Positions 4,367 to 24,299 of a stretch of 45,244 nucleotides of DNA are shown here, one piece after another. The notes beneath the pieces were generated by a model. That model was not told the origin of the DNA and searched no databases. It worked only from the letters and a program-made list of their open reading frames with translations. Location: IMG/VR virus record IMGVR_UViG_3300023283_000169, positions 1-45,244 of that record. One strand, 5' to 3'. The position numbers and the translations under genes were made by a program. Source of the DNA: a virus (Duplodnaviria > Caudoviricetes). Numbering within the stretch: the stretch's first letter is position 1; every line of letters begins with the position of its first letter.

Positions 4367-4710
4367 CCCCGGTGGACCTGTTCATCGACAACGACAACCT
4401 GCTGGTCCTCGACGGGCTGTGGGACGGGATCGACAAGACAGCGGCGGACCGATGGTTGACGGACGGCGAGGTGGCCGTGACGGTCCGCGTGCTCGATCGG
4501 AACGAGAACGAGCTCGTCGGAGCCACGTGGCCGATCGCGTTCGAGTTCGAGACGGGCTCGAACGGGCGGTGGAGGGCCACGATCCCGGCGGCGGTGAAGA
4601 TCCGGGAGGGCAGGCCGTACGTCCTGGACGTCGCGGTAACGGGCGACGTCGAAGCCAGGGCGCGGATCCCGGCGATCGGTCGTGTGCGAACGCTGGTGAC
4701 GACGAAGTAG
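4363..4710 (+). CDS. Hypothetical protein (possible virion accessory)
   Basis: ATGA overlap with upstream gene; GGAGG RBS. Confidence 0.7.
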   Translation: MTPVDLFIDNDNLLVLDGLWDGIDKTAADRWLTDGEVAVTVRVLDRNENELVGATWPIAFEFETGSNGRWRATIPAAVKIREGRPYVLDVAVTGDVEARARIPAIGRVRTLVTTK

Positions 4711-4748
4711 GGCTGTTCAGGCGTCTCGCATCCTGCTACATTCTCATC

Positions 4749-4994
4749 GTGGCCGGCGACGACGTGTGGGTCCTCCGATCATCGATTGACTTCGGCAAGC
4801 CGGTGTACCATCGGCCCCGGTCGAAGATCGCTCGCACGTCTGACCCGGTCGGGTACATCGTTACCTGCTGCGGCCTGAGCGTTCGGAAGTGGAACGTCCC
4901 CCGCCGCGAGATCGTCGATCACGCGATCGGCCTGCCGCCCAACCTCGCCAGAGAGATCGCCAAGCCCTGCGGAAGGTGCTGGCCCCGCACCTGA
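4749..4994 (+). CDS. Small Cys/His protein (start uncertain)
   Basis: YH...TCCG...PCGRC in the 3' part of ORF 4419-4994; no clear RBS. Confidence 0.4.
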   Translation: MAGDDVWVLRSSIDFGKPVYHRPRSKIARTSDPVGYIVTCCGLSVRKWNVPRREIVDHAIGLPPNLAREIAKPCGRCWPRT

Positions 4995-5061
4995 TCCCCA
5001 CCTGTGTAGCTGGCCCGGCGAAACAGCTCGCGACGTCCACGAAAAAATCTTGCGTAGCCCC

Positions 5062-5090
5062 TTGACACGTATCGCATAATGCAATAAGAT
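5062..5090 (+). promoter_or_regulatory. Sigma70-type promoter P1 with operator TATCGCA-TAA-TGCAATA
   Basis: TTGACA-17 nt-TAAGAT; palindrome 5070-5086. Confidence 0.85.
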
Positions 5091-5135
5091 GATACTATGA
5101 GAGTTCAATCAACAACCGAAACGCGGGAGGACGAA

Positions 5136-5480
5136 ATGAGCGACTCGACGATCAAGGACCTCAAGACGACCCTGACGATCCATGACCTCACGGTCAACGA
5201 GATCAAGCGGGTCTACTCCGGGAGGCCAGGATGCGGGTGTGGGTGCCGGGGAAAGTACTACGACGACGGGCCGATGTTCGCGAAGACGCTTCGGATCCTG
5301 CAGGAGCGGGCCGACGAGATGGAGGAGCCGGGGGGCTTCGGCGACGAGGTCTGCTTCGCGATCGAGGACGAGACCCGGTACCGGTGGTTGTACACCACGA
5401 AGCAGGCGTTACTGCGCCGAGAGAGGGAAGTCCTGGTAGCGCGGATCGCCGAGATCGACGAAGCGGCCGAGCAGCAGTAG
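5136..5480 (+). CDS. Early hypothetical protein with SGRPGCGCGCRGKY motif
   Basis: First gene after P1; AACGCGGGAGG leader/RBS. Confidence 0.8.
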   Translation: MSDSTIKDLKTTLTIHDLTVNEIKRVYSGRPGCGCGCRGKYYDDGPMFAKTLRILQERADEMEEPGGFGDEVCFAIEDETRYRWLYTTKQALLRREREVLVARIAEIDEAAEQQ

Positions 5481-5511
5481 GGCGACACGAACCCAAGCGC
5501 GGGAGTGAACG

Positions 5512-5883
5512 ATGAGCCAGACGAAGGAAGAGGCATTGATAGCGATCGATGTCGCGATCGAGGAGGCCGAGGAAGAGATCGCAGACTTTGCCGACCGGTT
5601 GGCGAGGTCCGAGAACCCGCTGTACGAGATGAAGTGGTCGAACAACGTGTTCGAGGCGGCGGCGAATCTCGACGTGCTACGGCGTTTCCGGAAGGTCGTA
5701 GAGAAGAAGGGGATCGAGGAGGCGCGACTGCACGCGGCGAGATACGCGCTTAGGCACTCGCGTGACGTGGGCGGCTCGTCGAACAGCGTGATCAACCTCG
5801 CCGAGGTGCGGGTCATGGAAGCGACGGGTCGGTTCGCCATGCCCTACGGTTCGGTCGAGCCGTGGGAAGCCCTGACCGGGTAG
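5512..5883 (+). CDS. Early hypothetical protein
   Basis: RBS present; helical, typical codon pattern. Confidence 0.75.
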   Translation: MSQTKEEALIAIDVAIEEAEEEIADFADRLARSENPLYEMKWSNNVFEAAANLDVLRRFRKVVEKKGIEEARLHAARYALRHSRDVGGSSNSVINLAEVRVMEATGRFAMPYGSVEPWEALTG

Positions 5884-5939
5884 CCGGTCGACGAGGAGCC
5901 GCGGGCTAGGCCCGCTGTTCCGTAACGCGGGAGAGAAGA

Positions 5940-6296
5940 ATGGAAGAGACGAGCGGGGCGCCAGGGATCCACGAGGTCATCGGAGCGATCGACCTCGGAG
6001 CATACGACGAGCACGTGGAGAGCCTGTACGCCGCACTGAAAAGGGTGACGCAGAGGCAGAAACGGGAAGCGATGGAAGGCGTGGCGGTGGGCGACCGGGT
6101 GAAGTTCGACGCCGGCACGAGGGGCACACGCTACGGCGTGGTGGAGAAAGTCATGCAAGTGAACGTGTCGGTTCGGGAGGTGGGCTCCGTGGGGGGTGGA
6201 AGGGTGAGGGTCGGCATGACCTGGAGGGTGCCGGCGATGCTTCTAGAAGAGGTCGACGCAGACGAGTGGAGCCGGATCGTCAAGGAGGAGCGATGA
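5940..6296 (+). CDS. Early hypothetical protein, SH3/KOW-like C-terminus
   Basis: VGDRVKF...GVVEKV..VNVSV...WRVPA.LLE pattern. Confidence 0.7.
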   Translation: MEETSGAPGIHEVIGAIDLGAYDEHVESLYAALKRVTQRQKREAMEGVAVGDRVKFDAGTRGTRYGVVEKVMQVNVSVREVGSVGGGRVRVGMTWRVPAMLLEEVDADEWSRIVKEER

Positions 6297-6709
6297 AGAC
6301 GCACGAGGACCGAAGGAAAGAGCTGCAGGGGGTAGCAAACAGTCCGGGCCTGCGGGGGTTCTCGGACTGGTTGCGCTCGAAAGGGTCGACCATCCCCAGA
6401 GGTATGATCGGGTCGGCACAAGGGTGCCCGATGACGAAGTGGCTCCAGAGCGAGGGTCTGGACGTCAGGGAAGTCTGGTACGACGAGGTCGTGTTCGAGG
6501 ACGGCGAGAAGGTGTCGTGGGACGAGATCAGCGTTCCTGTGGGGGACGCCCCGATCCAGAGCATGGCCTCATTCCAGGACCGCGTGGTGGACCGTTTCAC
6601 GAGGCTGTTCGAGATCGCCGAGGGTCACGGTTCGCCCGGGCGGTGGCTTCGGGAGGCGCTGTGGATCGAGGTCGAATGTGAGAACGCATGGCAGAGGAGG
6701 GGGCGATGA
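6293..6709 (+). CDS. Early hypothetical protein
   Basis: AGGAGGAG RBS; ATGA overlaps on both sides. Confidence 0.75.
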   Translation: MKTHEDRRKELQGVANSPGLRGFSDWLRSKGSTIPRGMIGSAQGCPMTKWLQSEGLDVREVWYDEVVFEDGEKVSWDEISVPVGDAPIQSMASFQDRVVDRFTRLFEIAEGHGSPGRWLREALWIEVECENAWQRRGR

Positions 6710-7359
6710 GCAGCACCGTGGGGATCGACATGGCTCGGGAGGGGCCGCGCGGGTGCGGCTGGAGGAGCGCCGGTCAGGAAGGGGTCGGCATCTACCTGAT
6801 GGGCGGACTGCTGGCGGAGCCGTGCGAACGGCTCCCGTTCCCGCTCCACGAGTGCCGGACGTGCGGCGGGGGAATCAAGCCCTCGCGGGGCTGGACGTGG
6901 ATCGAGCCTGACGAGCTGTTCCGGGGAGGGTAGCATCCAAGATGCGACCCGAACGCATTCCCAGGACACGACTGCAACCGGTGCCACATGTGCTGGCCCC
7001 CGACCGGCCGGCACGGGCTGGTCTGGGTCGGGTCGTCGCACTACCCGACCCCCGAGTCTTTCGCCGAGGAGGCCCGCAGGATGGAGATCAGCCGGAAGGT
7101 CGCGGCGTTGCCACGAGGACTGGAGATCGGCGAGACGGTGGTGTACGTCGGCCACCGCGAGTGCAGGATCGAGAACGGAGAGATCGGGCCCGGCGTATTC
7201 ACGGCCTACAAGCCGTCGCGGGTAGACCTGGTGGTCGAGGTGGAGGATCCGGCCGACTTGCCCGCGTACGCCCTGTGGCTCAAGGGCCGGATCGGTGAGC
7301 ACGCCCGGCTCGTGAAGGTCGAGCGAGTCGGCGAGACCGTAGAGATGGACCTGGATTGA
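6706..7359 (+). pseudogene. Cys-rich phage protein interrupted by in-frame TAG at 6931-6933 (pseudogene, readthrough or error)
   Basis: ORFs 6688-6933 and 6988-7359 share a frame and read ...FRGG*HPRCDPNAFPGHDCNRCHMCW... continuously. Confidence 0.7.
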
Positions 7360-7385
7360 CAGAACGGGGGGCGATGGTGTATGTT
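7356..7385 (+). promoter_or_regulatory. Sigma70-type promoter without the operator, upstream of a non-coding region
   Basis: TTGACA (7356)-18 nt-TATGTT (7380). Confidence 0.55.
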
Positions 7386-7391
7386 CCGTCC

Positions 7392-7480
7392 GGCTCCGAG
7401 TTCGGAGACGGACCGGAGTTCATCGTTCCTCACAGGGGTCGGCTTGCTTCCCGCGTTGCGAGTCGGCCCCGCCTTATTTC
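7392..7480 (+). ncRNA. Candidate antisense small RNA
   Basis: 5' hairpin 7394-7407; CATCGTTCCTC 7421-7431; 13-bp stem 7435-7447/7458-7470 with three G.U pairs and loop TTCCCGCGTT; T-rich tail. Confidence 0.5.
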
Positions 7481-7983
7481 AGCTCCTCTCCCGCCCGATC
7501 GGCCCCCGACCCATACACCACCCTTCCCCGCCACGAGCGCGGCCCCCACAGCGAGGCTCTGTTCCCCACGGGACCGCTTCCGGAGCGGCCCCATCCCCAT
7601 ACTTGCCGTCCCGGAGGTCGTGAGTTATTTCTCTCGTGCCCCAAACGCGGGAGTTGGGACACCGTTCTCCTCGCGGCACGTGACGCCGTGCGAACCGACT
7701 CAACGGGATTGGCGACAGCTCCACCGAGAACAAGAATCCGGGCTCTGCTGGGGAGCAACCCGGTGCGACCCCGGTGGAGTCTTCGGCTCTGGACTCGGAG
7801 AGGACCAGGGGTGGCCCCGACACCGCGGGCCACAGAAAAAGGGGAAGCGCGGGCCGGCCGAACGATTGGCGATCCAGTAGGCCTTGCCGCGCTTCCCCAG
7901 GTGGTGCTAGCGTCTTCACCGCTCCGGTGACGACCCTCCGAATATACAGGGTCGCCTAAACCCCCGCCACGTCTCCGCGAAGT

Positions 7984-8038
7984 TTTTCCACAGCCACCCA
8001 CAGTGAATCCACAAAGAGGGCAAGCGGGCGCGTCCACA
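7984..8038 (+). promoter_or_regulatory. DnaA-box-like cluster (candidate origin element)
   Basis: TTTTCCACA (7984-7992) fits TTWTNCACA; CCACA cores at 7988, 7998, 8009, 8034. Confidence 0.35.
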
Positions 8039-8044
8039 AGCGCC

Positions 8045-8073
8045 TTGACGCGCCTCGCAGAATGCGATAAGAT
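8045..8073 (+). promoter_or_regulatory. Promoter P2 with operator CCTCGCA-GAA-TGCGATA
   Basis: TTGACG-17 nt-TAAGAT. Confidence 0.85.
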
Positions 8074-8118
8074 CATACCATGGAAGCACAGCGAGCAAAC
8101 CGAACGCGGGAGGACAAA

Positions 8119-8337
8119 ATGCCCAACACACCGACCATCCCGGTCGAGCTCGTCGTCGAGCGGATCCACGAGCGGGCCAGGGACCCGGCCATCTCCGAAC
8201 CGCAGCGGTGGGCGCTCGAAACCGCCATCGCAATCATCGAGGCCGAGAAACTCGACCCGGAACAGCTACTCCGGTGCTTCTTCGAGCTCGCCGAGGGGTT
8301 CGAGCGGGCTGGCGACATCATCCACCGGGCCTCCTAG
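8119..8337 (+). CDS. Early hypothetical protein
   Basis: AACGCGGGAGG RBS after P2. Confidence 0.75.
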   Translation: MPNTPTIPVELVVERIHERARDPAISEPQRWALETAIAIIEAEKLDPEQLLRCFFELAEGFERAGDIIHRAS

Positions 8338-8383
8338 CGGGGCCCTCCACCGGCGGACCACCGCCGGAACACGAGGAGGAACG

Positions 8384-8578
8384 ATGAGCGGGACGACGGA
8401 AATCGACGCCACGCAAGCCGACGAGTCGTGCCCAGTCTGCGGATCGCGGCTATACGTGGAAGAAGCGTTCACGATCGACGCCTTCCACGAGGAGTGGGTT
8501 TACGGATGTACGGGGTGTGGCCGCTGGTTCGTGCAGGTCGTCTCGGACGAGGGGGCGTCCGAGCTGCGGGGTCAGTAG
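8384..8578 (+). CDS. Small Zn-ribbon protein
   Basis: GAGGAGGAACGATG start; CPVC...CTGC. Confidence 0.75.
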   Translation: MSGTTEIDATQADESCPVCGSRLYVEEAFTIDAFHEEWVYGCTGCGRWFVQVVSDEGASELRGQ

Positions 8579-8607
8579 AGGCCCGGCGGAGACGTAGGTC
8601 CGGTCCC

Positions 8608-8636
8608 TTGACTTCTATCGCAGAATGCGATAAGAT
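8608..8636 (+). promoter_or_regulatory. Promoter P3 with perfect operator TATCGCA-GAA-TGCGATA
   Basis: TTGACT-17 nt-TAAGAT; 32-nt core identical to P4. Confidence 0.9.
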
Positions 8637-8684
8637 GGAATCATGATGGACGAACAGAACACCAACCGAAACGCGGGAGGAGCG

Positions 8685-8918
8685 ATGGAAAAGCAGACCG
8701 TGACGTTCCGGGGTCGGACGTTCGAGGTGCCGAGCCTGAGAGCGGACGACTTCATTCGGGAGCGCGTGCTGGATCCGAACGGGTCCGACATCGACGCGAT
8801 GTTCGTGACGCTGGACGGGCTCGCGGAGCAGGAGGGCTGGTCGAGAGCCGAGCGCGGCGCGATGCTGAACGTGCTCGACGAGAAACTCCCCGACTGGCTC
8901 GCGGTCGTCGGCGACTGA
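8685..8918 (+). CDS. Early hypothetical protein
   Basis: AACGCGGGAGGAG RBS after P3. Confidence 0.75.
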   Translation: MEKQTVTFRGRTFEVPSLRADDFIRERVLDPNGSDIDAMFVTLDGLAEQEGWSRAERGAMLNVLDEKLPDWLAVVGD

Positions 8919-9124
8919 TGGACGGGCGCACGTTCTACCCGTTCCCACGCGGCTACGACGTCCGGGGGCTCGCGAAGCGGTTGAGCGCGATGTTCCCGGC
9001 GGAGTCGGTCGTGTACGGGTCGACACACCACAGCATAATCCTGAAAGCGGACGCGCCGGACCAGCTCGTCCGGCGCGTGGTGCGGGCCCGCCGCGAGGCC
9101 CGAGAAATGGAGGCGCACGGATGA
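8918..9124 (+). CDS. Hypothetical protein
   Basis: TGATG coupling with upstream gene. Confidence 0.7.
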   Translation: MDGRTFYPFPRGYDVRGLAKRLSAMFPAESVVYGSTHHSIILKADAPDQLVRRVVRARREAREMEAHG

Positions 9125-9312
9125 CACGACTCAAGGAGTACGAGCGATGGGAGCCAGCCGAGGAGACCGACGGCGAGCCCTTGATATGTCTACGGTGCGG
9201 GAAGCAAACCGAGGCTCTGATCTGCGATCCAACGGGCGGGCCCGAGATGGTCCTGGGGGAGAGGTGCCGACCGTGCGGGTGGGTCATTCGCTTCGACGGA
9301 GAGGGGGAGTAG
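9121..9312 (+). CDS. Small Zn-ribbon protein
   Basis: CLRC...CRPC; ATGA overlap. Confidence 0.7.
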   Translation: MTRLKEYERWEPAEETDGEPLICLRCGKQTEALICDPTGGPEMVLGERCRPCGWVIRFDGEGE

Positions 9313-9314
9313 AC

Positions 9315-9527
9315 GTGGCGAGAGGGATGCACGCCTCGATCACCGAGGACCGCGTGGTGGACGCGGTGGAGCGCGGGATGTTCGGGCTGGACAACCCAGG
9401 GTTCTGCCTGGCCTGCGGTGAGGAGCAGGGCGGGTGCGAGCCGGACGCCAGGTACTACGAGTGCGAGGGGTGCGGGGAGCGTCAGGTCTTCGGAGCCGAG
9501 GAGGTCCTCCTCATGGTTGCGGTCTGA
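9315..9527 (+). CDS. Small Zn-ribbon protein
   Basis: GFCLACG...EPDA..YECEGCG. Confidence 0.75.
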   Translation: MARGMHASITEDRVVDAVERGMFGLDNPGFCLACGEEQGGCEPDARYYECEGCGERQVFGAEEVLLMVAV

Positions 9528-9569
9528 GCGGGGGGTACGGGGCGCCGCGAAACCACCTTTCCTCCACCC

Positions 9570-9598
9570 TTGACTTCTATCGCAGAATGCGATAAGAT
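9570..9598 (+). promoter_or_regulatory. Promoter P4 with perfect operator
   Basis: TTGACT-17 nt-TAAGAT; TATCGCA-GAA-TGCGATA at 9578-9594. Confidence 0.9.
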
Positions 9599-9643
9599 AG
9601 AAGTATGAGAGTAACGAACCACAACCCAAACGCGGGAGAGAAA

Positions 9644-9883
9644 ATGGCCAAGCCGGACGCACTTCAGCTCGTGGAGCGCGAGGGCGGCCTGTTCGACATC
9701 GTCGACGAGGAGTACAACGTGGTCGTCGAGGGGCCGTTCACGCACGCGAAGCAGGCTCGTGACTGGCTGATCTCGGAGAGCGAGATCGTTCGAAAGGACC
9801 ACTCCAAGCTCATGGACCGGGTGATGGAGATCCGGGCCGAGCTGGTACAGATGGTCGACCTCATCCGGCGGCTCCGGGCCTAA
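9644..9883 (+). CDS. Early hypothetical protein (C-terminal coiled coil)
   Basis: AACGCGGGAG RBS after P4. Confidence 0.75.
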   Translation: MAKPDALQLVEREGGLFDIVDEEYNVVVEGPFTHAKQARDWLISESEIVRKDHSKLMDRVMEIRAELVQMVDLIRRLRA

Positions 9884-9892
9884 CACACCAAC

Positions 9893-9930
9893 GGGTGCCG
9901 GCGGTCGGAGCATCGCCGGCACCCTTCTTC
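9893..9930 (+). terminator. Intrinsic terminator-like hairpin
   Basis: GGGTGCCGGCG/CGCCGGCACCC perfect 11-bp stem followed by TTCTTC. Confidence 0.6.
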
Positions 9931-9945
9931 AACGCGGGAGGAACC

Positions 9946-10140
9946 ATGGAGCAGTTAAGAGAAGCGATGGAGCGGGCAGGATTCAAGGTCAGCGGGCCGA
10001 CGAAGCGAGGAGTCTGCAAAGTCTGTGAGAAGCGGCCGGCGATGTGCGGCACCGGGATGTGCTACACGTACTGCGAGATGAGCCGCGAGATCACGGATCG
10101 ATGCGACCGGGCGTGGGGTGGAGAGCGCAACGGAACGTAA
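9946..10140 (+). CDS. Small Cys-rich protein
   Basis: AACGCGGGAGG RBS; CKVC...C...CYTYC. Confidence 0.7.
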   Translation: MEQLREAMERAGFKVSGPTKRGVCKVCEKRPAMCGTGMCYTYCEMSREITDRCDRAWGGERNGT

Positions 10141-10162
10141 CCTGCAACGAGGGAGAGGTACG

Positions 10163-10396
10163 ATGAGCCTGAAAACGGTGGAGCAGGCGCTGGCCGAGTT
10201 GGGGCTAGCGGACACGAACGCAGAGCGGCTGGCGGCGGTGGCGGCGGACGCGCACCGGCAGGTCTGCAAGATGGACCTGGGCCAGCTGTCGCTCGCGCAC
10301 AAGAACGCGGTGGTCGACGCGTTCGTGATTCTCGCCGAGTTCTACGGCATGCATAACGGGCCGGGGACACGGTTCGAGTTCTTGGAGGACCAATGA
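10163..10396 (+). CDS. Hypothetical protein
   Basis: GGAGAGG RBS; coupled to next gene. Confidence 0.7.
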   Translation: MSLKTVEQALAELGLADTNAERLAAVAADAHRQVCKMDLGQLSLAHKNAVVDAFVILAEFYGMHNGPGTRFEFLEDQ

Positions 10397-10818
10397 AGCG
10401 CGCCCAGATCGACCGCAGCGGGTGGCGGTGTGGTGGGTGGAACAAAGACCGCCACGGAAAGGGTTCGACGCTGCTCAGGAACGAGGAGGGGTACATGTGT
10501 TGTCTCGGGTTCCGGGCCGTCGAAGCGTTCGTCGCGTGCGGGATGGAAGAGCAGCGAGCGCTCCAGATGGTGGAGGGAAAAAAAGAGCCCTACGAGTTCC
10601 TGGAAACGTCTGTGCCCATATCGGACCGTGCGCTGATGGCGCTGGACAAAGTACTGGTTGACGTGTATAGCGGTGACGCCACAGAGTTCGCGTACCGAGC
10701 AATGGAGCTGAACGACGCCGACGGCCTGTCTCGTGATGAGCGCGAGGAAGCGCTCGTCAGGCTCGCGGCGGAGTACGGCGAGGAGTGGGTCTTCGTGGGG
10801 GAGTACTCCGATGGCTGA
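10393..10818 (+). CDS. Hypothetical protein (MCCLG motif)
   Basis: GGAGG RBS; overlaps with flanking genes. Confidence 0.75.
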   Translation: MKRAQIDRSGWRCGGWNKDRHGKGSTLLRNEEGYMCCLGFRAVEAFVACGMEEQRALQMVEGKKEPYEFLETSVPISDRALMALDKVLVDVYSGDATEFAYRAMELNDADGLSRDEREEALVRLAAEYGEEWVFVGEYSDG

Positions 10819-11230
10819 TGCCCGGCGTGGGATGCCCGGCCCGCTCTCCGACGACAGGCTCGACGGGCCCGTAGGGTTCGGGAAGCACCGGACCGAGACG
10901 TGGAACGAGGTCATCGTGAGAGACCCGTCGTACGCCGCGTTTGCGGTGGCGAGCATGGATCGTCTCGACACGGATCTGCGCGAGCAGATTGAGCGCGGGC
11001 TGGAAGACACGTACGCGTCGGTGCTGGAGTGGCCGGTGGGGTTCGGGAAGCATTCCAAGCTGACGTGGGAGGAGGTGATTGACGCGGATCCGGGCTGGAC
11101 GTGGTGGGCGGTGGACGAGGTGGAGAGGCTGGGAGACGAGCTGCGAACCGAGGTGCGGGAAGCCCTGATCGAGGCGGGTCACGAGAACCCGATGGAAGAC
11201 TACAACGACCGCGTCACCCGCGAATGGTGA
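10811..11230 (+). CDS. Protein of two tandem FGKH (DUF3820/ExoX C-terminal-like) domains
   Basis: PVGFGKH..TW.EVI..DP occurs twice. Confidence 0.75.
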   Translation: MADARRGMPGPLSDDRLDGPVGFGKHRTETWNEVIVRDPSYAAFAVASMDRLDTDLREQIERGLEDTYASVLEWPVGFGKHSKLTWEEVIDADPGWTWWAVDEVERLGDELRTEVREALIEAGHENPMEDYNDRVTREW

Positions 11231-11253
11231 GGCGGCAGCACAGAGGAGGAACG

Positions 11254-11583
11254 ATGAGCGCAAAGGAGACGAGTCTACTGGAAGCCCTCAACGAGCACGG
11301 GGACCGGATGAGGGAGTGCGAGGGACACAGGGCGATGTTGGAAAACCTCAAGGTTGACGATTTGCAGATGATGCAGCACGTCGCCATGGCCGTCGTGAAA
11401 GCGAGCGAGGGCGAGGACGTGGATCACGAGATGCAGGTACTGGTCCAGATCATCGTCCTGTCCGCCATGATACTCTCGGGGCTGGCGATCGAGATGTGCC
11501 TCGCGGAATCGCCCGCGCTCGCCGACCTCATCGATGGATCCGGCGGGAACAACGGGCGAGAGCGGAGTGGTCCGCGTGGGTGA
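11254..11583 (+). CDS. Hypothetical protein with hydrophobic segment
   Basis: GAGGAGGAACGATG start. Confidence 0.75.
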   Translation: MSAKETSLLEALNEHGDRMRECEGHRAMLENLKVDDLQMMQHVAMAVVKASEGEDVDHEMQVLVQIIVLSAMILSGLAIEMCLAESPALADLIDGSGGNNGRERSGPRG

Positions 11584-11854
11584 TCCGGGGGCGATCCTAG
11601 AGCGCTGGCGTTCGTGGCTCACGCGGATGCTCCGGCGCGACGACCCCCCCACCCCACCACCACCCCACCCGGAGGGGGAAACAGAGCCCCACGCCTATCT
11701 CTCGACCCTCACGTGCGAGTATTGCGGGGCCCTCGTCCCCCAACGGGAGGCTGGATACGTACGCGGGTACTACGGAGAGCTGCATGTGACGTGCCGGTCT
11801 GGCCCGACTGGACATAGTGTTGCACCTTGCGATAGATTGAAGCCAAGGAGGTAG
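11576..11854 (+). CDS. Hypothetical Pro-rich/Zn-binding protein (start uncertain)
   Basis: CEYC...H.TC; fills the gap between flanking genes. Confidence 0.5.
   Translation: MGDPGAILERWRSWLTRMLRRDDPPTPPPPHPEGETEPHAYLSTLTCEYCGALVPQREAGYVRGYYGELHVTCRSGPTGHSVAPCDRLKPRR
11809..11838 (+). promoter_or_regulatory. Promoter with degenerate operator upstream of HTH gene
   Basis: TGGACA-18 nt-TAGATT with TGTTGCA-CCT-TGCGATA. Confidence 0.6.
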
Positions 11855-11855
11855 T

Positions 11856-12101
11856 ATGGGAGAAACCGAAAGCAACGGACTCGGGGAGCGCATCGATCGC
11901 GTGTACATGGTCCTGCACGATGTCGACGACCCGAACGGCAGCAGAACGTGGTTTGCCGGAGAGGCGGAGACGACCTACAGCACGGTCTGGCGGTGGGTGC
12001 GCGGGGAGGTGGAGCCGAACGCGCTGGCGATGCGGCTGCTCGATCGCCTGGAGAAAAAGGCCGACCGCAAGCTGGCGAGGCAGAAGAAAGCGGAATCGTG
12101 A
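11856..12101 (+). CDS. Cro/XRE-like helix-turn-helix regulator
   Basis: SRTWFAGEAETTYSTVWRWVRGEVEP HTH pattern; AGGAGG RBS. Confidence 0.75.
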   Translation: MGETESNGLGERIDRVYMVLHDVDDPNGSRTWFAGEAETTYSTVWRWVRGEVEPNALAMRLLDRLEKKADRKLARQKKAES

Positions 12102-12116
12102 ACACGAGGAGGAGCG

Positions 12117-13346
12117 ATGACGGAACGCGAGGTGGAAGAAGTCGAGGCGGAGGTCGTGGAGGGTGAAGAGGACGAGGGCGGAACAGTAGAGGCCGGCGTT
12201 TCGCTGACGAGGCGGCGCCCCGCGTCGACCCCGATCAAGCCCGAACCGGTCAGCATGGTCGACTACCTCGACGAGATCGCGTCGGAAGAGGCGATGGAAG
12301 CGCAGGGTCGGCTGAGCAAGGCGTACTCCGACTACTGCCACGCGATCCTCGACGAGAGCGATCAGCAGGAGATCGAGGGTCGGGCGTTCAAGAAGAAGTC
12401 CGCGTGGAGGAAGTTGGGTAGGGCGTTCCAGGTCAGCACCGAAATCATCGACGAGTCGGGATGGTGGGAGGCGGACCCGGACGAGGGGGTCCGCCACTTC
12501 GTCGCGAAGTACGTCGTGAGGGCGACCGCGCCGTGGGGCCAGTACACCGAAGCGGTCGGTTCGTGCTCGACCCGCGAGGATCGGTTCTACTCGACCGGGG
12601 CATCCTGCCCGGAATGCGGTGGGCCGATGTGGGACAACCGCCGGGCGATCACGGGGAAGGACCCGAACGCGCCGGCATGGAAGCGTCAGCTGGCGGCGTT
12701 CACGTGCCGGGACAAGTCGTGCGCGGGCGAGATCGGCGACATGGATCACGAGACGTCGAGGGTTCCGAACCGTTCGGCGAGGGCGAAGGCAGACCACGAC
12801 GTACGGTCCACGGCCCAGACGAGGGCCACCAACCGGGCCATCTCGGACCTGATCGCCGCCGGAGAGGTCAGCGCGGAGGAGGTCGACCAGGGGCCCAACG
12901 GATCCGCGGCGAGCGAAGAGCCGGACGACGCGAAGACGAGCCTGCTGTGGCGGAACGTCGGGTTCGGGAAGCACGCCGCGAAGGCGTGGGGGTGGGTCGT
13001 GAAGAACGACCCCGAGTTCGCGATGAAGGCGGTGAACGAAGGGAAGCTGGAGGGCCAGGAAGCCGACGAGCTGAGGTCCGTGCTCCCGATCACGCAGGCG
13101 TACCGGGACGAGGTCGCGTTGCTCCTCGACACGAGGGTGTTCGAAGACGGAGACGAGAAGCACCAGAAGATGAAGCAATGGTGCGTCGGCGTGGCGTCGG
13201 GAGAGCTGTCCCCGTCGATAAAGAAGGCGCAGGACGCGATCGTGAAGATCGGGATGCTCGAAAGCAAGGAGCCGGAAGAGCCCGAGCCTCAATCCGACGA
13301 CTCGAATGGAGACGATGATGAGTTCGAAGACGAGCTCCCGTTCTGA
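12117..13346 (+). CDS. Putative ssDNA-annealing/recombination protein with Zn ribbon, FGKH domain and SSB-like acidic tail
   Basis: KKSAWRKL...STAQTRATNRAISDL core; CPECGGPMWDNR...C...C; ends DDDEFEDELPF. Confidence 0.6.
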   Translation: MTEREVEEVEAEVVEGEEDEGGTVEAGVSLTRRRPASTPIKPEPVSMVDYLDEIASEEAMEAQGRLSKAYSDYCHAILDESDQQEIEGRAFKKKSAWRKLGRAFQVSTEIIDESGWWEADPDEGVRHFVAKYVVRATAPWGQYTEAVGSCSTREDRFYSTGASCPECGGPMWDNRRAITGKDPNAPAWKRQLAAFTCRDKSCAGEIGDMDHETSRVPNRSARAKADHDVRSTAQTRATNRAISDLIAAGEVSAEEVDQGPNGSAASEEPDDAKTSLLWRNVGFGKHAAKAWGWVVKNDPEFAMKAVNEGKLEGQEADELRSVLPITQAYRDEVALLLDTRVFEDGDEKHQKMKQWCVGVASGELSPSIKKAQDAIVKIGMLESKEPEEPEPQSDDSNGDDDEFEDELPF

Positions 13347-14704: not shown

Positions 14705-14717
14705 ACGAGGAGGAACG

Positions 14718-15455
14718 ATGAAAACGCTGTACGAGATCGAAGACGCGGTAAAGGACCTGCTGATCGAGGCCCGAGCGATCGAGACGGAGATCGAGGAGGC
14801 CGGCGGGGAGGTGGACCCCGCGATGGAGTCCAGGTACGACAGGGTGATGGAGGCGCTCGACAACGCGCTCGGAGAGGGCGAGGAGAAGATCGAGCGGTAC
14901 GTGATGGTGTGGAGGAACCTGATGGCCGAGGCCGAGATCGAGGATCTCCGCACGAAGCAGTACAGCCGCGAGGCGAGCCGGTTCAGGGCGCGGAAGAACC
15001 AGATCCAGAGGCAGGTCGACAACATGAAGTGCAGGGCGGGCCGGGCGATGCATCGGTTCGGCGTCGGCATCGGGAAGAAGCACAACGGCGAGAAGGTGTC
15101 GTTCGCGGTGTACAGGTCGTCGAGGCCGAGTGTGGAGATTTTCGACCACGCCAGGATCCCCAACACACACAAGGGCGTCCGCCTGGTGCTGGACGGGCGG
15201 GTCGGTGAAGACGTGCTCCGGTGGATCGCGAGCCGGTGGAACCTGGCCCATCCCGAAGACGAGCTGGGGCTGGAAGACCTGGCGAACGAGATCCGGGGGT
15301 CGGACGGGGTGAACGAGATCGAAGTGTCCGTCGACACGACATCGGTGCTGGCCGAGCTCCGGGAAAACGGAGACGACCCGAAGACGGTCGGGCGTCACGT
15401 GCTTGACGACTACGGCGTGATCCTGGAATACACCGAATACGTGAGGGACTGGTAG
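14718..15455 (+). CDS. Siphovirus Gp157/Gam-like coiled-coil protein
   Basis: MKTLYEI start; EEKIE.Y..V.RNL; long helical N-half; S.PSVEIFD...IP. Confidence 0.7.
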   Translation: MKTLYEIEDAVKDLLIEARAIETEIEEAGGEVDPAMESRYDRVMEALDNALGEGEEKIERYVMVWRNLMAEAEIEDLRTKQYSREASRFRARKNQIQRQVDNMKCRAGRAMHRFGVGIGKKHNGEKVSFAVYRSSRPSVEIFDHARIPNTHKGVRLVLDGRVGEDVLRWIASRWNLAHPEDELGLEDLANEIRGSDGVNEIEVSVDTTSVLAELRENGDDPKTVGRHVLDDYGVILEYTEYVRDW

Positions 15456-16639: not shown

Positions 16640-16651
16640 GGGCACGAAAGC

Positions 16652-16829
16652 AAGCCGAAGTTCTAGATATATCCGAAGGTCTTGAGCGAGCCGAACGCGA
16701 CCAGATGCCCAGATCCGCTGAGCGAGCCGAGAGCCCTTGACCTGTATCGCAACGCGCGACATGTTCAGAGAACGGGACATCCCACGAGGGGACGAGCCGA
16801 CGTAGACGAGGTGCCCATAGCGAACGAGC
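16652..16829 (+). ncRNA. Upstream TIGR-like mini-array (units 16652-16687, 16688-16723, 16794-16829; degenerate 70 nt between)
   Basis: Same 5-9-9-9-4 unit as main array, e.g. gagcc gacgtagac gaggtgccc atagcgaac gagc. Confidence 0.8.
16737..16765 (+). promoter_or_regulatory. Promoter/operator upstream of tas gene
   Basis: cccTTGACC-17 nt-CATGTT with TATCGCA-ACG-CGCGACA; same geometry as P1-P4. Confidence 0.6.
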
Positions 16830-16851
16830 GCAACTCAACCGAGGAGGAACG

Positions 16852-17781
16852 ATGACGGAAAACGCGGAAACGACGACGACCACAGCCTCCAGCCATCTGC
16901 GGTGGCTGGCCGACAACTACGAGCAGAACCAGCGCATGAGGATCCAGGCCGGGGAGCGCATCCGGGCCGTGATCCAGGGACGGGACACCGACCGCGTTGA
17001 CGTGGACGAAGACGAGATCGATGTGGACTCGATCCTCAAGATGATCGTCGAGGGCTCGACGAACGGGGCGACAGCCTACGTCCCCGCGTTCCTGACACGA
17101 TCCTACCGCCTCCACCACGGGGAAGAGCGGGCTTCGTACCGCGACATGATCGTCGCGGTGAAAGACCACCCCGCGTGGCCGTGGCTGGAGAAGGTAAAGG
17201 GGATCGGCCCGACGATGGCGTGCAAGATCCTGTCGAGGCTCGACCTCGATCGGGCAGAATACGCGTCGTCGTTCTGGTCGTACTGCGGCCTGGGCACCGT
17301 ACCCGCCAACAAGTACCGCTGCTCCGAGTGCGGAAGGTCGCGGTCGTTCCCCGTCCGGTACAAGGTGACCGGGAAGCACACGACGCCCGAGGGGGCGAAG
17401 TGTCCAGAGACGATGGAGCTGGTGGCGGGCCCGGACGACGGGGTGCGGTGCGCCCAGCCGCGACCGTCGGCGGGGCAGAAGTCGACGTACGACCAGTACG
17501 CGAAGAAGACCATCTACCTGATCGGAACGCAGTTCCTGAAAGCGAAGGGCGCCTACGCGGACTTCTACCATCGCGAGCGCGAGAAGTACGACGAGAGCCG
17601 GCCCGGGTGGGACAAGGGGAGGAAGCACCTCTCCGCGCTCAGGAAGACGGAAAAGCTATTCCTGTCGCACCTGTACGAGGTGTGGTGCGAGGCGACGGGT
17701 CGGGAGCCCGCGAAGCCGTGGATCGAGGAGTTCGGTAGCGAGGGCCACACGATCATCGACCCCTGGGACATGGTGGGGTAG
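16852..17781 (+). CDS. tasA: TIGR-associated (Tas) Nop-domain protein, TasA-like (IS110/Nop RNA-binding fold, no visible RuvC/HNH), with Zn-ribbon insertion
   Basis: Coiled-coil N-terminus; HP.WPWLEKVKGIGP...KILS; SSFWSYCGL; H..ALRK..KLFLSHLY.VW; no DEDD N-terminal domain; directly abuts the 36-nt array. Confidence 0.85.
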   Translation: MTENAETTTTTASSHLRWLADNYEQNQRMRIQAGERIRAVIQGRDTDRVDVDEDEIDVDSILKMIVEGSTNGATAYVPAFLTRSYRLHHGEERASYRDMIVAVKDHPAWPWLEKVKGIGPTMACKILSRLDLDRAEYASSFWSYCGLGTVPANKYRCSECGRSRSFPVRYKVTGKHTTPEGAKCPETMELVAGPDDGVRCAQPRPSAGQKSTYDQYAKKTIYLIGTQFLKAKGAYADFYHREREKYDESRPGWDKGRKHLSALRKTEKLFLSHLYEVWCEATGREPAKPWIEEFGSEGHTIIDPWDMVG

Positions 17782-18862
17782 AGCCAGCGGCGTCGAGATA
17801 ACCGCATCCGGCAAGCGAGCCGTTGTTCAGGAGGCCCCCGATTCGGCAGAGCGAGCTGCAGCCAACGAGGTACCCCGAGGAGCTGAGTGAGCCGACAGTA
17901 CGGATGTAACTGGTGACGAGAAGCAAGCTGATCGGATCAAGGTAACCGTGGAGCGGGAGGGAGCCGTGGCAAGAAAGGTGACCGACACGACCGAGCGAGC
18001 CGCGGCCCAGAAGATACCCGTGTCCGAGAAGCGAGCCGTCGAATGTGACGTACCCGTCAGTGCAGAGTGAGCTGGGGTGGGACCGGTATCCGAGGGACCA
18101 GAGCGAGCCGAGAGAAACGAGACGACCGTCCGAACGAGGTGAGCCGGGATTGATGAAGTGCCCGATCCACCAGAGCGAGCCGCTGCGCCCGAGGTAACCG
18201 GCCCGCGCAAGCGAGTCGCAAGAACCGAGGTATCCGTTGCAGTCGATCGAGCCGAAAATGAGCAGGCGCCCGTACTCGAAAAGCGAGCCGAAGGAACAGA
18301 TGTGTCCGCTAAAAACGATCGAGCCGCGCCAGTGGAGGTATCCGGCTCGCGGAAGCGAGCCGCCGTCAACGACGTGTCCGAGGAGTTCGATCGAACCGTC
18401 CGTCCGGGAGGTGACGGAAAGTGCAGAGTGAGCCGTGAGTCCCGATGTAACCAGGCAAGGCGAGCGAGCCGAGGGCGGCGATATAACCACGCCACTTGAG
18501 CGAGCCGAGGCATGGTGAAGTGCCCAAAGAAGGAGAGCGAGCTGCCGAATGTCAGGTGACCGTCGGAAAAGAGCGAGCCGGACGATCTGAAGTGGCCGAG
18601 ACTTCAGAGCGAGCCGGAAGTTTTGAGGTGACCGAGAGAGCCGATCGAGCCGTTGGCAAAGACATGACCGTTCCAGAGAAGCGAGACGCGCTCCATGAGG
18701 TGACCGGAGTCCCGGATCGAGTCGCACCTGACAACATACCCGTTGATCCTGAACGAGCCGAAGTTCTCAAGATGACCGCAGGGGTCGAGTGAACCGTGAT
18801 GCACGAGGTACCTGTACGAGTCGAGCGATCCGTCACCAGCAAGGCGCCCGAAGCAACCGAGT
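17781..18862 (+). ncRNA. TIGR (tandem interspaced guide RNA) array, 30 units
   Basis: Parsed by hand: 28 units of 36 nt and 2 of 37 nt; consensus GAGCC-[G+N8]-RANRTRNCC-[G+N8]-RAGC; spacer pairs all different. Confidence 0.9.
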
Positions 18863-21339: not shown

Positions 21340-21798
21340 ATGGTGGGAGACGAAAGCGCGGGGAGCGAACGCGAGGGACCCCCCAGGATCTACACGAGCA
21401 GCTTCGGCAACCTGAAAAACCTCCTGCACCTGAACCCGGTAGGCATAGCGCGCGGGATCCCGAAATGGTACCGAGGGAGGAACGATCGACGCCTGGCGCC
21501 CTCGTGGGGAATGCTGAAGATGTCGAAGCGCGATTACGACAGGCTGATGTTCGCCATCCTCGAACAGCTTGCGCCAGAACAGATCGCGGACGATCTTGGG
21601 GACCGCGCCGTGATGCTCTGCTGGGAGCCGCCAGGAATCCGGTGCCACCGGCGACTCGTGGCTGAATGGCTCGAAAGCGCGCTGGACATCGTGGTTCCCG
21701 AGGTCGGGTTCGATCGGGACGAGACGCCTGAATATCAAGCCATGCCGAGGAAGGGAGAGCGCCCCCCTGAACCACCCGACCAGCTGGCCATGCTCTGA
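21340..21798 (+). CDS. DUF488-like protein
   Basis: IYTS.F, GIARG.PKW, LAPSW.ML, LCWE....CHRRLVAEWL. Confidence 0.8.
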   Translation: MVGDESAGSEREGPPRIYTSSFGNLKNLLHLNPVGIARGIPKWYRGRNDRRLAPSWGMLKMSKRDYDRLMFAILEQLAPEQIADDLGDRAVMLCWEPPGIRCHRRLVAEWLESALDIVVPEVGFDRDETPEYQAMPRKGERPPEPPDQLAML

Positions 21799-21806
21799 GA
21801 ACCTGT

Positions 21807-21883
21807 TGCGTGGTGGTGTAACGACAACATACCGAGGCTCTGTGCCGGGAGATTTGCGGTTCGAGTCCGCAGCCACGCAGCCA
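21807..21883 (+). tRNA. Atypical/degenerate tRNA-Gln(CTG)
   Basis: Acceptor TGCGTGG/CCACGCA + G + CCA; D stem GTGT/ACAT; T arm TGCGG-TTCGAGT-CCGCA; loop CT-CTG-TG; anticodon stem is disrupted. Confidence 0.7.
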
Positions 21884-21891
21884 ACATCCTG

Positions 21892-23367
21892 ATGCGACAA
21901 CTCGGAAAACTGTTCCTGGGCGCGACGAGCTCCAGCCACCGCCGGTGGTTGGCGTCGGCCCTCGCTCACCTCCGCAAGTCCGGGAAGGCGAAGTCGGTGG
22001 TCGTGCCGTGCTGCGGTGCGTTCGGGCTCGTCCGGGCCGCCATCGAAGGCGGTGTTCCCGTCGAGAAGGTCCACGCCAGCGACATCGGGCTGTTCTCGTC
22101 CATCATCGGGTTCGTCGCCTCCGGGCGGGACCTCAGCGAGATGCCCTTCGAGCCCCACGAGAAAAGCACGATCGGTGGCCACGAGTTCGAGGTTGCCGAG
22201 ATGTGGTCCGGGGCACCGGACGACCTCGCGAGGGGTGCCCGCCTGATGTGGCTCATGAAGCTCGCCCAGCTAAACCCCCAGATCGAGTACGAGCGCATGG
22301 TGTTCGACGAGATCTTCATGGGCCGGGAGGCGTACCAGAAGCAGGCGAGGGACGAGCTCGAAGAGATCACTGCATCGATCCGGGGCCTACGGTACGAGAT
22401 CGCGGACATGGCCCACGTCTACCGGCGTAAGCACCCCGAGGGTAGCGTGCTGCTCATCAACCCGCCGGCGTTCGCGGGTGGGTACGAGAAGATGTTCCCG
22501 ATCGAGCGGATCGGGCGCTGGTCCGTCGAGTTCCAGGAGTGGACAATGGCCAGCTACCACGACGACTACAGGGACACGAAAGCGAGGCACGGCTTCCCGG
22601 TCTTCTGGCTCCGGCACGGAGATACCGACGGGATCCCGAAGGGGGACGCCGTGTTCGCGAAGGAGTACAGCAAGGGGCGCTACAAGTACTGGCTCTGCAC
22701 GCAACCGGAGACGTTGGACGGGTTCGACGGGAAGTTCCAGATCGACCACAACAGCCGTCAGGACGTGGAGCCGTACCGGAACCTGCCGATCTGGAAAGAA
22801 GACGAGGAGATGGACGCGGAGATGCCGGTCCAGATCGTCAGGGTCGAGGAGCGCCACGCGCTGTACTACCGCGACCTCTGGGCCCACCGGCTCGACAACA
22901 CGAAGGCCGAGATGTACTACCTCATCCTGATCGACGGGAAGGTGTTCGGGACGGTCGGGTTCTACTACGCGACCCTCAGGTTCAACCGGGACAACAAGGC
23001 GTTCGAGGTGTTCGGGTTCTCGGCCCCGTCGAAGCGATACCCGAACAACGGGCGGCTCCTGATGCACCTGATCACGATGACCGCGATGAAAGAGCTGCTC
23101 CTCGGCACGATGGGCAAGAACCGGCTGTTCTACCTCGATGGGATCGCCACCACGTGCCTGTCGAAGTACCGGCACGTCAAGCTGAACAGCGGGCTGCTGG
23201 AAGTGACGCACCGGGAGAAGTAGCCCAACGGCATGTACAAGATTCAGTACGCCTGCGAGTTCCGGGAAGAGACCTTTCAGGAGGCCCTCGCCGCGTATCT
23301 CGACGAGTTCGAGGCGGAAAGGGAGGAGTGGAAAAAGCGGCGGGAAGGAGCCAGGACAGAGCAATGA
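21892..23367 (+). CDS. N6-adenine methyltransferase-like plus C-terminal GNAT-like DNA-modification protein; in-frame TAG at 23221-23223
   Basis: VVVPCCGAFG (motif I-like), ASDI, LLINPPAF (motif IV-like); frame continues 47 codons past the TAG to a TGA that overlaps the next ATG. Confidence 0.7.
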
Positions 23368-24299
23368 CGCATCCGAACCTGAAGAAGAGAGAGCGGATCG
23401 CACCCCTCGGCGAGGGCCTGGAGATCTGGCACGTGCATCACGACTGCCTGCGGGAGCAGGACAAGAACGCTCGGGTGATGCCGACCCGGAAGTTCGACCG
23501 CCTGAGCGACAACATCGGGAAGCGCGGCGCACTGGAACAGCTCCCCTACGTCTACAACCCCTCCCCAGACGACCCGGAGACCGAGTTCCAGATCATCTCC
23601 GGCCACCACCGGATCCGCGCCGCCCGCAAAGCACAGATCGAGATGCTGTGCGTGCTCGTGGAGACGCGCGAGATGTCGCGGGACGAGATCACGGCCAAGC
23701 AGCTCGCCCACAACGCCCTCGTAGGGTTCGACGACCCGCAGGTGCTCGCGGAGATGTTCTTCAGCATCGAGGACATCGAGGCGAGGATCGAGACCGGAAT
23801 CGCCGACGAGGACCTGGAGCTCGGTACGCCCGTCGACATCGGCGAGATGTCGTTCGACCTGGACCACGAGATCGTGAACATCGTCTTCGTGAAGAGGGAC
23901 TACGATCGGTTCGAGGAGGTGCTGGAGCTGCTCGAAGCCGACAGTCACGTCGTGGTCGCAGACTACGAGGACTTCGACGGGTTCAAGCGGATCGCGATCG
24001 ACGTGAGCCAGAGGTTCGACGTGAGGAACATCGCCGCGATCGTCGCCAAGATGGTCCGGATCCTGAACGTCCACTACCTCTCCAGGGCCAAGAAGATCGG
24101 GCACGGGGAAGACGAGTGGGTCGAGATCGAGGCGATCGTGGGCTCGCCCAGGATGCCGGTCGGGCCGGCGGGCATCCTCCAACGCGCAGTCACGCACATG
24201 GTCGAGAACGGTGACGTGCGAGACCGGAACGCATGGCAGGCGCTGGAATATCTCGCCGCCGAGTACCTCGCCAGGGTGGGTGAAAAGGCCGAGGAGTGA
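23364..24299 (+). CDS. ParB/Srx N-terminal domain protein
   Basis: NAR.M...FDRL..NI...G, FQIISGHHRIRAA, QLAHNAL.G.DD. Confidence 0.85.
   Translation: MTHPNLKKRERIAPLGEGLEIWHVHHDCLREQDKNARVMPTRKFDRLSDNIGKRGALEQLPYVYNPSPDDPETEFQIISGHHRIRAARKAQIEMLCVLVETREMSRDEITAKQLAHNALVGFDDPQVLAEMFFSIEDIEARIETGIADEDLELGTPVDIGEMSFDLDHEIVNIVFVKRDYDRFEEVLELLEADSHVVVADYEDFDGFKRIAIDVSQRFDVRNIAAIVAKMVRILNVHYLSRAKKIGHGEDEWVEIEAIVGSPRMPVGPAGILQRAVTHMVENGDVRDRNAWQALEYLAAEYLARVGEKAEE

Follow-up and report, generated by a model that had tools for sequence, protein, structure and literature searches.

The c4 RNA of phage P1 and the CI RNA of P4 each carry two short seeds and have target copies on either side of the RNA gene, and c4 RNA is processed from a precursor by RNase P. 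In P1 and P7, c4 is a phage-encoded antisense RNA that acts on phage mRNA and controls its own icd-ant operon (PMC8198154; here and below, statements on cited papers refer to the parts of them that were available). The phage antisense RNAs listed in one review are single-target (PMC12197685), and each of those described in the reviews and papers examined (sar, OOP, aQ, c4 and sas) targets a single message that lies next to it or overlaps it. Late phage sRNAs are described, in the available part of PMC4933390, without a target set such as the one reported here, and that of PMC12360218 contains nothing on P4 CI RNA. Repression of many mRNAs at their ribosome-binding sites (RBSs) is described for the host-encoded 6C/B11 RNAs of mycobacteria, which use unpaired pyrimidine-rich segments made of low-complexity C runs (10.1101/2022.10.27.514065). 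The tigRNAs of TIGR-Tas systems contain two short guide-like segments directed at adjacent halves of one DNA site (PMC12045711; 10.64898/2026.09.09.750476).

A different kind of precedent comes from Cluster K mycobacteriophages, which carry 11-19 copies of the start-associated sequence (SAS) at the starts of non-structural genes; in four phages a single reversed copy lies away from starts, and whether RNA or protein is the SAS binder was left open (PMC3203893; Pope et al. 2011). The role of SAS was still called unknown in 2024 (PMC11373665; Freeman et al.), and in their available parts neither paper assigns SAS a function or gives the reversed copy an RNA role. RNA-seq of the Cluster K phage Adephagia placed the start of late transcription between genes 92 and 93, a gap that is not among the lysogen-expressed regions described in the part of that study available (PMC11373665). 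In the literature covered, which held few subscription papers and not the supplements of PMC3203893 and PMC11373665, no title or abstract opening reports an antisense RNA like the one described below or an antisense partner of SAS.

The window analysed here is a whole IMG/VR record of 45,244 nt, which has terminal repeats, yet is rated only 44% complete. It derives from a tailed phage of 65% GC with its genes on the + strand. PHROGs and Pfam family searches placed the early/middle genes at ~5.1-21.8 kb and the packaging, structural and lysis genes elsewhere. A palindromic operator is common to the spacers of four early promoters (5062, 8045, 8608 and 9570); with up to 2 mismatches to its consensus, nine operator-like sites were counted, including one before a small HTH-like gene and one before a gene annotated as tas. 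The HTH-like gene (11856..12101, + strand, 81 aa; window region 11809-12101) has its own promoter with an operator-like site upstream (11818) and is conserved in the nearest relative of the phage, G006:C96. Its product is likely the repressor of the early promoters and a candidate for autoregulation. Two further segments stand out. Just before the second early promoter, 7984-8038 holds three TCCACA repeats and the only DnaA-box-like 9-mer of the genome, and may be a replication origin. Just before the terminase gene, 21340-24299 contains DUF488-like, phage DAM-like/GNAT-like and ParB-N genes, possibly a DNA-modification cluster.

The initial annotation had proposed that an operator-less promoter of the form TTGACA-18-TATGTT drives a non-coding RNA in the early region. 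This sigma70-like promoter is indeed predicted at 7356..7385 on the + strand (10/12 consensus positions, with a non-optimal spacer of 18 nt), and a scan allowing 2 mismatches to the operator consensus found no operator-like site near it. Its −35 element and the stop codon of the preceding gene overlap. That gene (6706-7359) belongs to a widespread unnamed family with 162 homologues and is split by an in-frame amber codon (6931-6933) that also occurs in a public contig; it is either broken or read through.

Judged by the promoter spacing, the 5′ end of the RNA would lie at 7392/7393. The predicted fold of the RNA (7392-7478, + strand) consists of a hairpin, a 15-nt linker and a second hairpin. 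The 5′ hairpin (7393..7419) has a GAGA tetraloop, with a longer alternative if the RNA begins ~9 nt earlier. Seed 1 (7418..7431) lies mostly in the single-stranded linker, and seed 2 (7448..7457) makes up the 10-nt loop on a hairpin of 13 bp, three of them G.U (7435..7470; stem 7435-7447 with 7458-7470). Both seeds are predicted to be unpaired, and opening them in the short RNA would cost 0.2 kcal/mol for seed 1 and 0.7 kcal/mol for seed 2. The fold z-score of 7392-7478 was −3.4 on the + strand and +0.9 on the − strand; for the 13-bp stem by itself it was −3.5 versus +0.7, in agreement with the annotated strand specificity of the stem-loop that presents seed 2. Downstream (7471..7602), a short U tract (7474-7479) gives way to the 120-mer with the highest excess of C over G in the whole genome, which suggests that the RNA likely ends here, possibly with the assistance of Rho. 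A scan for intrinsic terminators, defined by a GC stem, a 3-8-nt loop and no fewer than 5 U among the 8 nt that follow, did not list hairpin 2, whose loop is 10 nt and whose U tract is short. DNA contigs repeat the sequence unchanged, although these may be the source sample. The sequencing runs listed for the sequence include no RNA run, a result neutral as to expression.

In a set of genes that we term class 1, seed 1 is complementary to the stretch running from the RBS through the start codon into the first coding bases. Its core (7421-7431) is the exact reverse complement of an 11-mer that has four sense copies, every one at a start on the + strand: 8376..8386 (gene at 8384), 11246..11256 (gene at 11254), 14710..14720 (a Gp157/Gam-like gene) and 16844..16854 (the TasA-type gene at 16852, flanked by TIGR arrays). 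These are the four starts, tas included, that had been listed for it. Matches with one G.U pair, likewise claimed earlier, are present at 6285..6295, 8677 and 12109..12119 on the same strand; the positions 6293, 8685 and 12117 given previously are those of the ATG. Across these seven class-1 tags the variable base is A or G, opposite a U. Seed 1 also pairs partially with the starts at 5512, 6706, 10163 and 19131.

Seed 2 is antisense to the leader of a second class of genes and to the 5′ half of their RBS, pairing with AACGCGGGAG through 9 Watson-Crick pairs and a terminal U.G. As the initial annotation held, this motif precedes six early starts, at a distance of 15-16 nt and always on the + strand. 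Three of these genes lie behind operator promoters, at 5136 (target 5120..5129), 8119 (8103..8112) and 9644 (9629..9638), and two have internal starts, at 5940 (5924..5933) and 9946 (9931..9940). The sixth, at 8685, carries both tags (8670..8687), the one-wobble class-1 copy at 8677 being part of the same start. A seventh, previously overlooked copy on the + strand (7644..7653) lies in a non-coding gap away from any start. A pyrimidine-rich stretch nearby is its predicted pairing partner, and the copy may belong to a second RNA or act as a decoy; the same gap (7620-7910) holds further strong hairpins (7810-7910, z −3.6).

Lists of 30 early/middle and 29 late starts, made by hand after the motifs had been seen, were used to assess the match between the RNA and the starts. 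At least 9 contiguous Watson-Crick pairs were possible at 12/30 early/middle starts versus 0/29 late starts. The best non-overlapping + strand window reached 5 starts, the best − strand window away from starts reached 9, and a single one of 20,000 dinucleotide shuffles reached the 12 target starts of the real RNA. At all four seed settings the RNA region was the top window of the genome (16 vs 12, 12 vs 4, 17 vs 9 and 11 vs 6). With accessibility taken into account and five early starts added, 14/35 early versus 2/29 late starts reached −10 kcal/mol or better (Fisher p 0.003); the class-2 targets at 5136 and 8119 came to only about −8 kcal/mol after opening costs, and this accessibility-aware scan predicted no target site at the start of the HTH gene (11856). 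The bases RCG, which 16S pairing does not need, precede the ATG at 13/35 early versus 1/29 late starts, and the class-2 core is found at 7/35 versus 0/29. The Markov expectation for both seeds to occur within 100 nt of each other anywhere in the genome was ~2e-5, a value calculated post hoc. The feature at 7392-7478 is real and non-random. These statistics lend good support to the annotation of a structured, non-coding RNA on the + strand whose two seeds are accessible and directed at early/middle starts, and its sequence and predicted fold display the hallmarks of a trans-acting antisense sRNA: it is non-coding and structured, with unpaired seeds against several starts.

The complementarity is limited to early/middle starts, and the region has no coding signal. 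The latter bears on the view that the motifs are merely the leader and start of a translated gene, either on the − strand (47 aa, from 7423) or on the + strand (168 aa, from 7374, with its RBS at 7366), an RBS-like sequence and an ATG being present in both. Codon scores were obtained from a model trained on the long genes of the phage, with 42 held-out ORFs as the control. All 9 ORFs over or beside the RNA region scored between −0.20 and −1.06 per codon, the 168-aa frame reaching −0.44, whereas 39 of the 42 held-out ORFs scored −0.07 or higher and the other three were judged to be shadow frames. The 47-aa ORF, which had been named as the case that would overturn the RNA interpretation, was rejected with −1.06 per codon, the worst value of all ORFs tested. 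A promoter scan returned 7 promoters, none of them on the − strand, and family searches gave no match for the 47-aa ORF (PHROGs, Pfam) or for the frame 7356-7880 (PHROGs). With the fold better than shuffles only on the + strand, translation is a very unlikely explanation of these motifs.

The promoter spacer contains a target-like copy, a G-rich RBS plus CGATG at 7366..7377 on the + strand, which the initial annotation had overlooked. Pairing between this copy and seed 1 is predicted solely for read-through RNA, in which opening seed 1 would cost 9.8 or 3.3 kcal/mol in the two contexts modelled. Because 7366-7377 would bury seed 1 in the read-through RNA, only an RNA that is started internally or cut free would expose it. 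Such predicted pairing in cis fits another view, in which the first early operon simply has its 3′ end here, with terminator or processing hairpins, and the distant matches are inert relics of an inverted leader copy. The region does lie directly after the last stop codon of the operon, hairpin 2 is followed by the U tract and the C-rich tract, and five tagged or near-tagged starts are upstream on the same operon. However, seed 1 is perfect against four downstream starts but forms three G.U pairs with its cis partner, and both seeds fall exactly at unpaired positions. Moreover, 9 of the 12 best targets are downstream on other transcripts, and no real start has two tags 17 nt apart as the inverted reading has. 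A mere operon end is rather unlikely.

We favour, with a probability of roughly 55%, a trans-acting antisense RNA of ~85 nt that pairs with the RBS tags of early/middle genes and keeps ribosomes from loading, probably contributing the translational half of the lytic early shut-off. The HTH protein would close the operator-bearing early promoters, and the operator-free promoter at 7356 would keep firing; it may also be freed from the read-through of the upstream operon, the transcript of which would bury seed 1. Paired with early/middle mRNAs over their RBS and start codon, the RNA would block 30S loading, a mode of action established for anti-RBS sRNAs such as B11 (10.1101/2022.10.27.514065). 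As it accumulates, it would outnumber and silence the leftover early mRNAs, including that of tasA, and the repressor and late genes would be spared.

The same RNA and the same pairing could instead serve dormancy or immunity: carrier or lysogenic cells would make the RNA alongside the HTH repressor, and it would silence early genes of the resident or a superinfecting phage, in the manner in which P1 c4 RNA silences ant. A promoter without the early-promoter operator and an HTH gene start free of target sites would suit such a role, and the target-like copies upstream (7366) and downstream (7644) recall the c4 and P4 CI layouts. Against this, no integrase family was matched among 71 ORFs (PHROGs) or 50 ORFs (Pfam), though the record is rated 44% complete, and the analogous gap of Adephagia is a late lytic start rather than one of the lysogen-expressed regions described in the available part of PMC11373665. 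We consider a function in dormancy unlikely.

Host mRNAs with similar RBSs might also be the main targets, in a host shut-off resembling 6C/B11 to which the phage matches are secondary. This would suit the anti-SD-like character of seed 1, and RNAs with C-rich loops are described as repressors of many G-rich RBSs (10.1101/2022.10.27.514065). Against this, the seeds match non-SD bases peculiar to the early starts of this phage, and we consider host mRNAs very unlikely as the principal targets. In contrast to the C runs of 6C/B11, the seeds are of mixed sequence, include an anti-start codon and are directed at phage-specific tags; neither the two C-run loops nor the Rfam match that mark 6C/B11 were found. 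An Rfam scan of 4500-12500 with E values up to 5 returned only atpB (E 3.4), located elsewhere, and neither c4 nor 6C. Whereas c4 controls its own operon, the RNA described here matches a dozen starts dispersed across 14 kb, and no antirepressor family was matched among the ORFs scanned (PHROGs, Pfam).

The gene annotated as tas (16852-17781) showed weak IS110/transposase-family matches and no nuclease-family match. Arrays of 36-nt dual-repeat TIGR units flank it (16640-16860 and 17777-18860), with ~30 units downstream and 3 upstream. By its sequence it is a TasA-type (Nop/IS110-like) gene of TIGR-Tas, the gene and its flanking dual-repeat arrays fitting TasA as described (PMC12045711; 10.64898/2026.09.09.750476). 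Its product carries a zinc-ribbon-like insert, the upstream array is interrupted by an operator-bearing promoter (16737), and none of the spacers of the 31 units (0/31) matched the phage's own genome within 2 mismatches. The possibility that the RNA is itself a tigRNA, on either strand, was rejected: the region is not among the best 80 full-unit scores, and a half-unit resemblance on the − strand ranks 188 with a score of 0.5. Although a TasA-type protein and 36-nt arrays are encoded by the same phage and the RNA likewise has two short guide-like segments, it lacks the edge/loop repeat frame on both strands and lies 9 kb from tas. The TIGR arrays here are dual-repeat and the two seeds are not enclosed by one stem; the seeds match separate mRNA starts, not adjacent halves of one DNA site. 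On sequence grounds the RNA would work like c4 and 6C/B11, yet by the features compared it belongs neither to these families nor to the tigRNAs.

No close relative of the phage was present in the collections searched. In IMG/VR, pattern scans gave 0 loci for both seeds and 0 loci for the operator-leader cassette; queries with single proteins, Tas and the product of the upstream gene, also gave 0 loci. Alignment scans returned 257 loci, all from distant phages, and blastn found no match to the RNA. As no homologue of the RNA was found, it offers no seed/target covariation. The nearest relative, G006:C96, has six proteins in common with the phage and a different start tag. Our advance prediction was that it contains a reversed copy of its own tag, whole or in large part. 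No 15-nt reverse copy was found within 2 mismatches; instead, between its last late gene and its first early promoter lies an intergenic hairpin whose 26-nt loop is CU-rich. With 7 vs 6 starts, this loop took first place at 1 of 4 settings; at two settings it came within the top five and at one outside it, and the hairpin folds no better than shuffles (z −0.7). The prediction was partly borne out, which provides weak, partial support from sequence.

Two unrelated IMG/VR phages, L033 (G001) and L034 (G002), show a comparable arrangement: in each, 5 or 6 starts are tagged, and a hairpin between genes carries at its tip one exact antisense of the phage's own start tag (L033:16350-16420; L034:18860-18925). 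Among the other matches of this first screen, the reversed copies in L129, L048 and L063 were rejected as gene starts on the opposite strand and those in L008 and L146 as coding. L048 and L063 share a start-associated motif containing CCCTACCAC, with 14 copies in L048 and 7 in L063. A controlled screen was then based on 189 loci of at least 7 kb, of which 165 remained without duplicates and 35 had a repeated start 10-mer. It yielded 14 antisense versus 4 decoy matches, 3 versus 0 of them non-coding, numbers that include the already seen L033 and L034 and are too few for significance. The filter would mask the RNA of our own window beneath a 174-aa shadow ORF.

The closest parallel is the reversed SAS of Cluster K. 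In Adephagia it lies in the gap separating gene 92 from gene 93 and forms the 10-nt loop of a long hairpin, a region with matches in 193 phage records. We sampled 24 Cluster K phages, mostly from BLAST matches, so that the sample is not unbiased. The exact 10-nt anti-SAS loop was present in 12/24: in seven at the right-end site, and in five Kratiovirus phages on a different stem, where the hairpin directly precedes the small terminase gene. The hairpin loop thus occupies two alternative sites in the late transcript region (L165:30655-30722; L162:31843-31908; L279:1095-1152). The loop was near-exact in MacnCheese (1/24) and had drifted to another pyrimidine loop in 5/24. It was not found in the remaining 6/24, namely in the whole genomes of Pixie, TM4, Yuna and KiSi and in the two end regions of Hurricane and SirPhilip. 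A search with a stem-plus-loop pattern (0/5) missed Larva, otherwise a true positive, and was not counted as evidence.

The right-end stem covaries among 12 sequences, with 89.7% of cells paired and five pairs showing two-sided changes; its covariation score was reached by 1 of 500 shuffles, although kinship can inflate it. In all 10 genomes that were checked in full, SAS was unchanged. With SAS invariant, seed and target show no covariation, and some lineages can dispense with the loop. Because the loop has drifted or is missing while SAS is invariant, an antisense loop cannot be the sole reason for SAS conservation.

The likeness between the two systems lies in layout. Both have start tags of non-structural genes that reach beyond the RBS, a subset of them behind sigma-type promoters with inverted-repeat operators (for Cluster K, as far as the published parts available describe), and a reversed copy away from starts, single in Cluster K. 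There is no sequence relation, the 13-bp SAS consensus being absent from the starts of our phage. This phage has two tag classes, two seeds and an apparently stand-alone RNA, in contrast to the single loop in the late transcript of Cluster K. By analogy, the Cluster K hairpins favour lytic timing over dormancy, though only indirectly.

We tentatively suggest that unrelated phages may have evolved a tag-and-antitag switch repeatedly, in which private tags at early RBSs and an antisense loop made later would allow a whole class of genes to be silenced without a protein. The RNA described here would be a two-seed version, and the reversed SAS hairpin of Cluster K would be the partner of SAS. If this is correct, a single phage RNA that silences a dozen of the phage's own genes through purpose-built start tags would constitute a new layer of timing, and among the silenced genes would be those of a TIGR-TasA system, itself RNA-guided. 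Through the parallel with Cluster K, the function of SAS, a question dating from 2011, becomes testable with a handful of point mutations in a phage that is grown on M. smegmatis.
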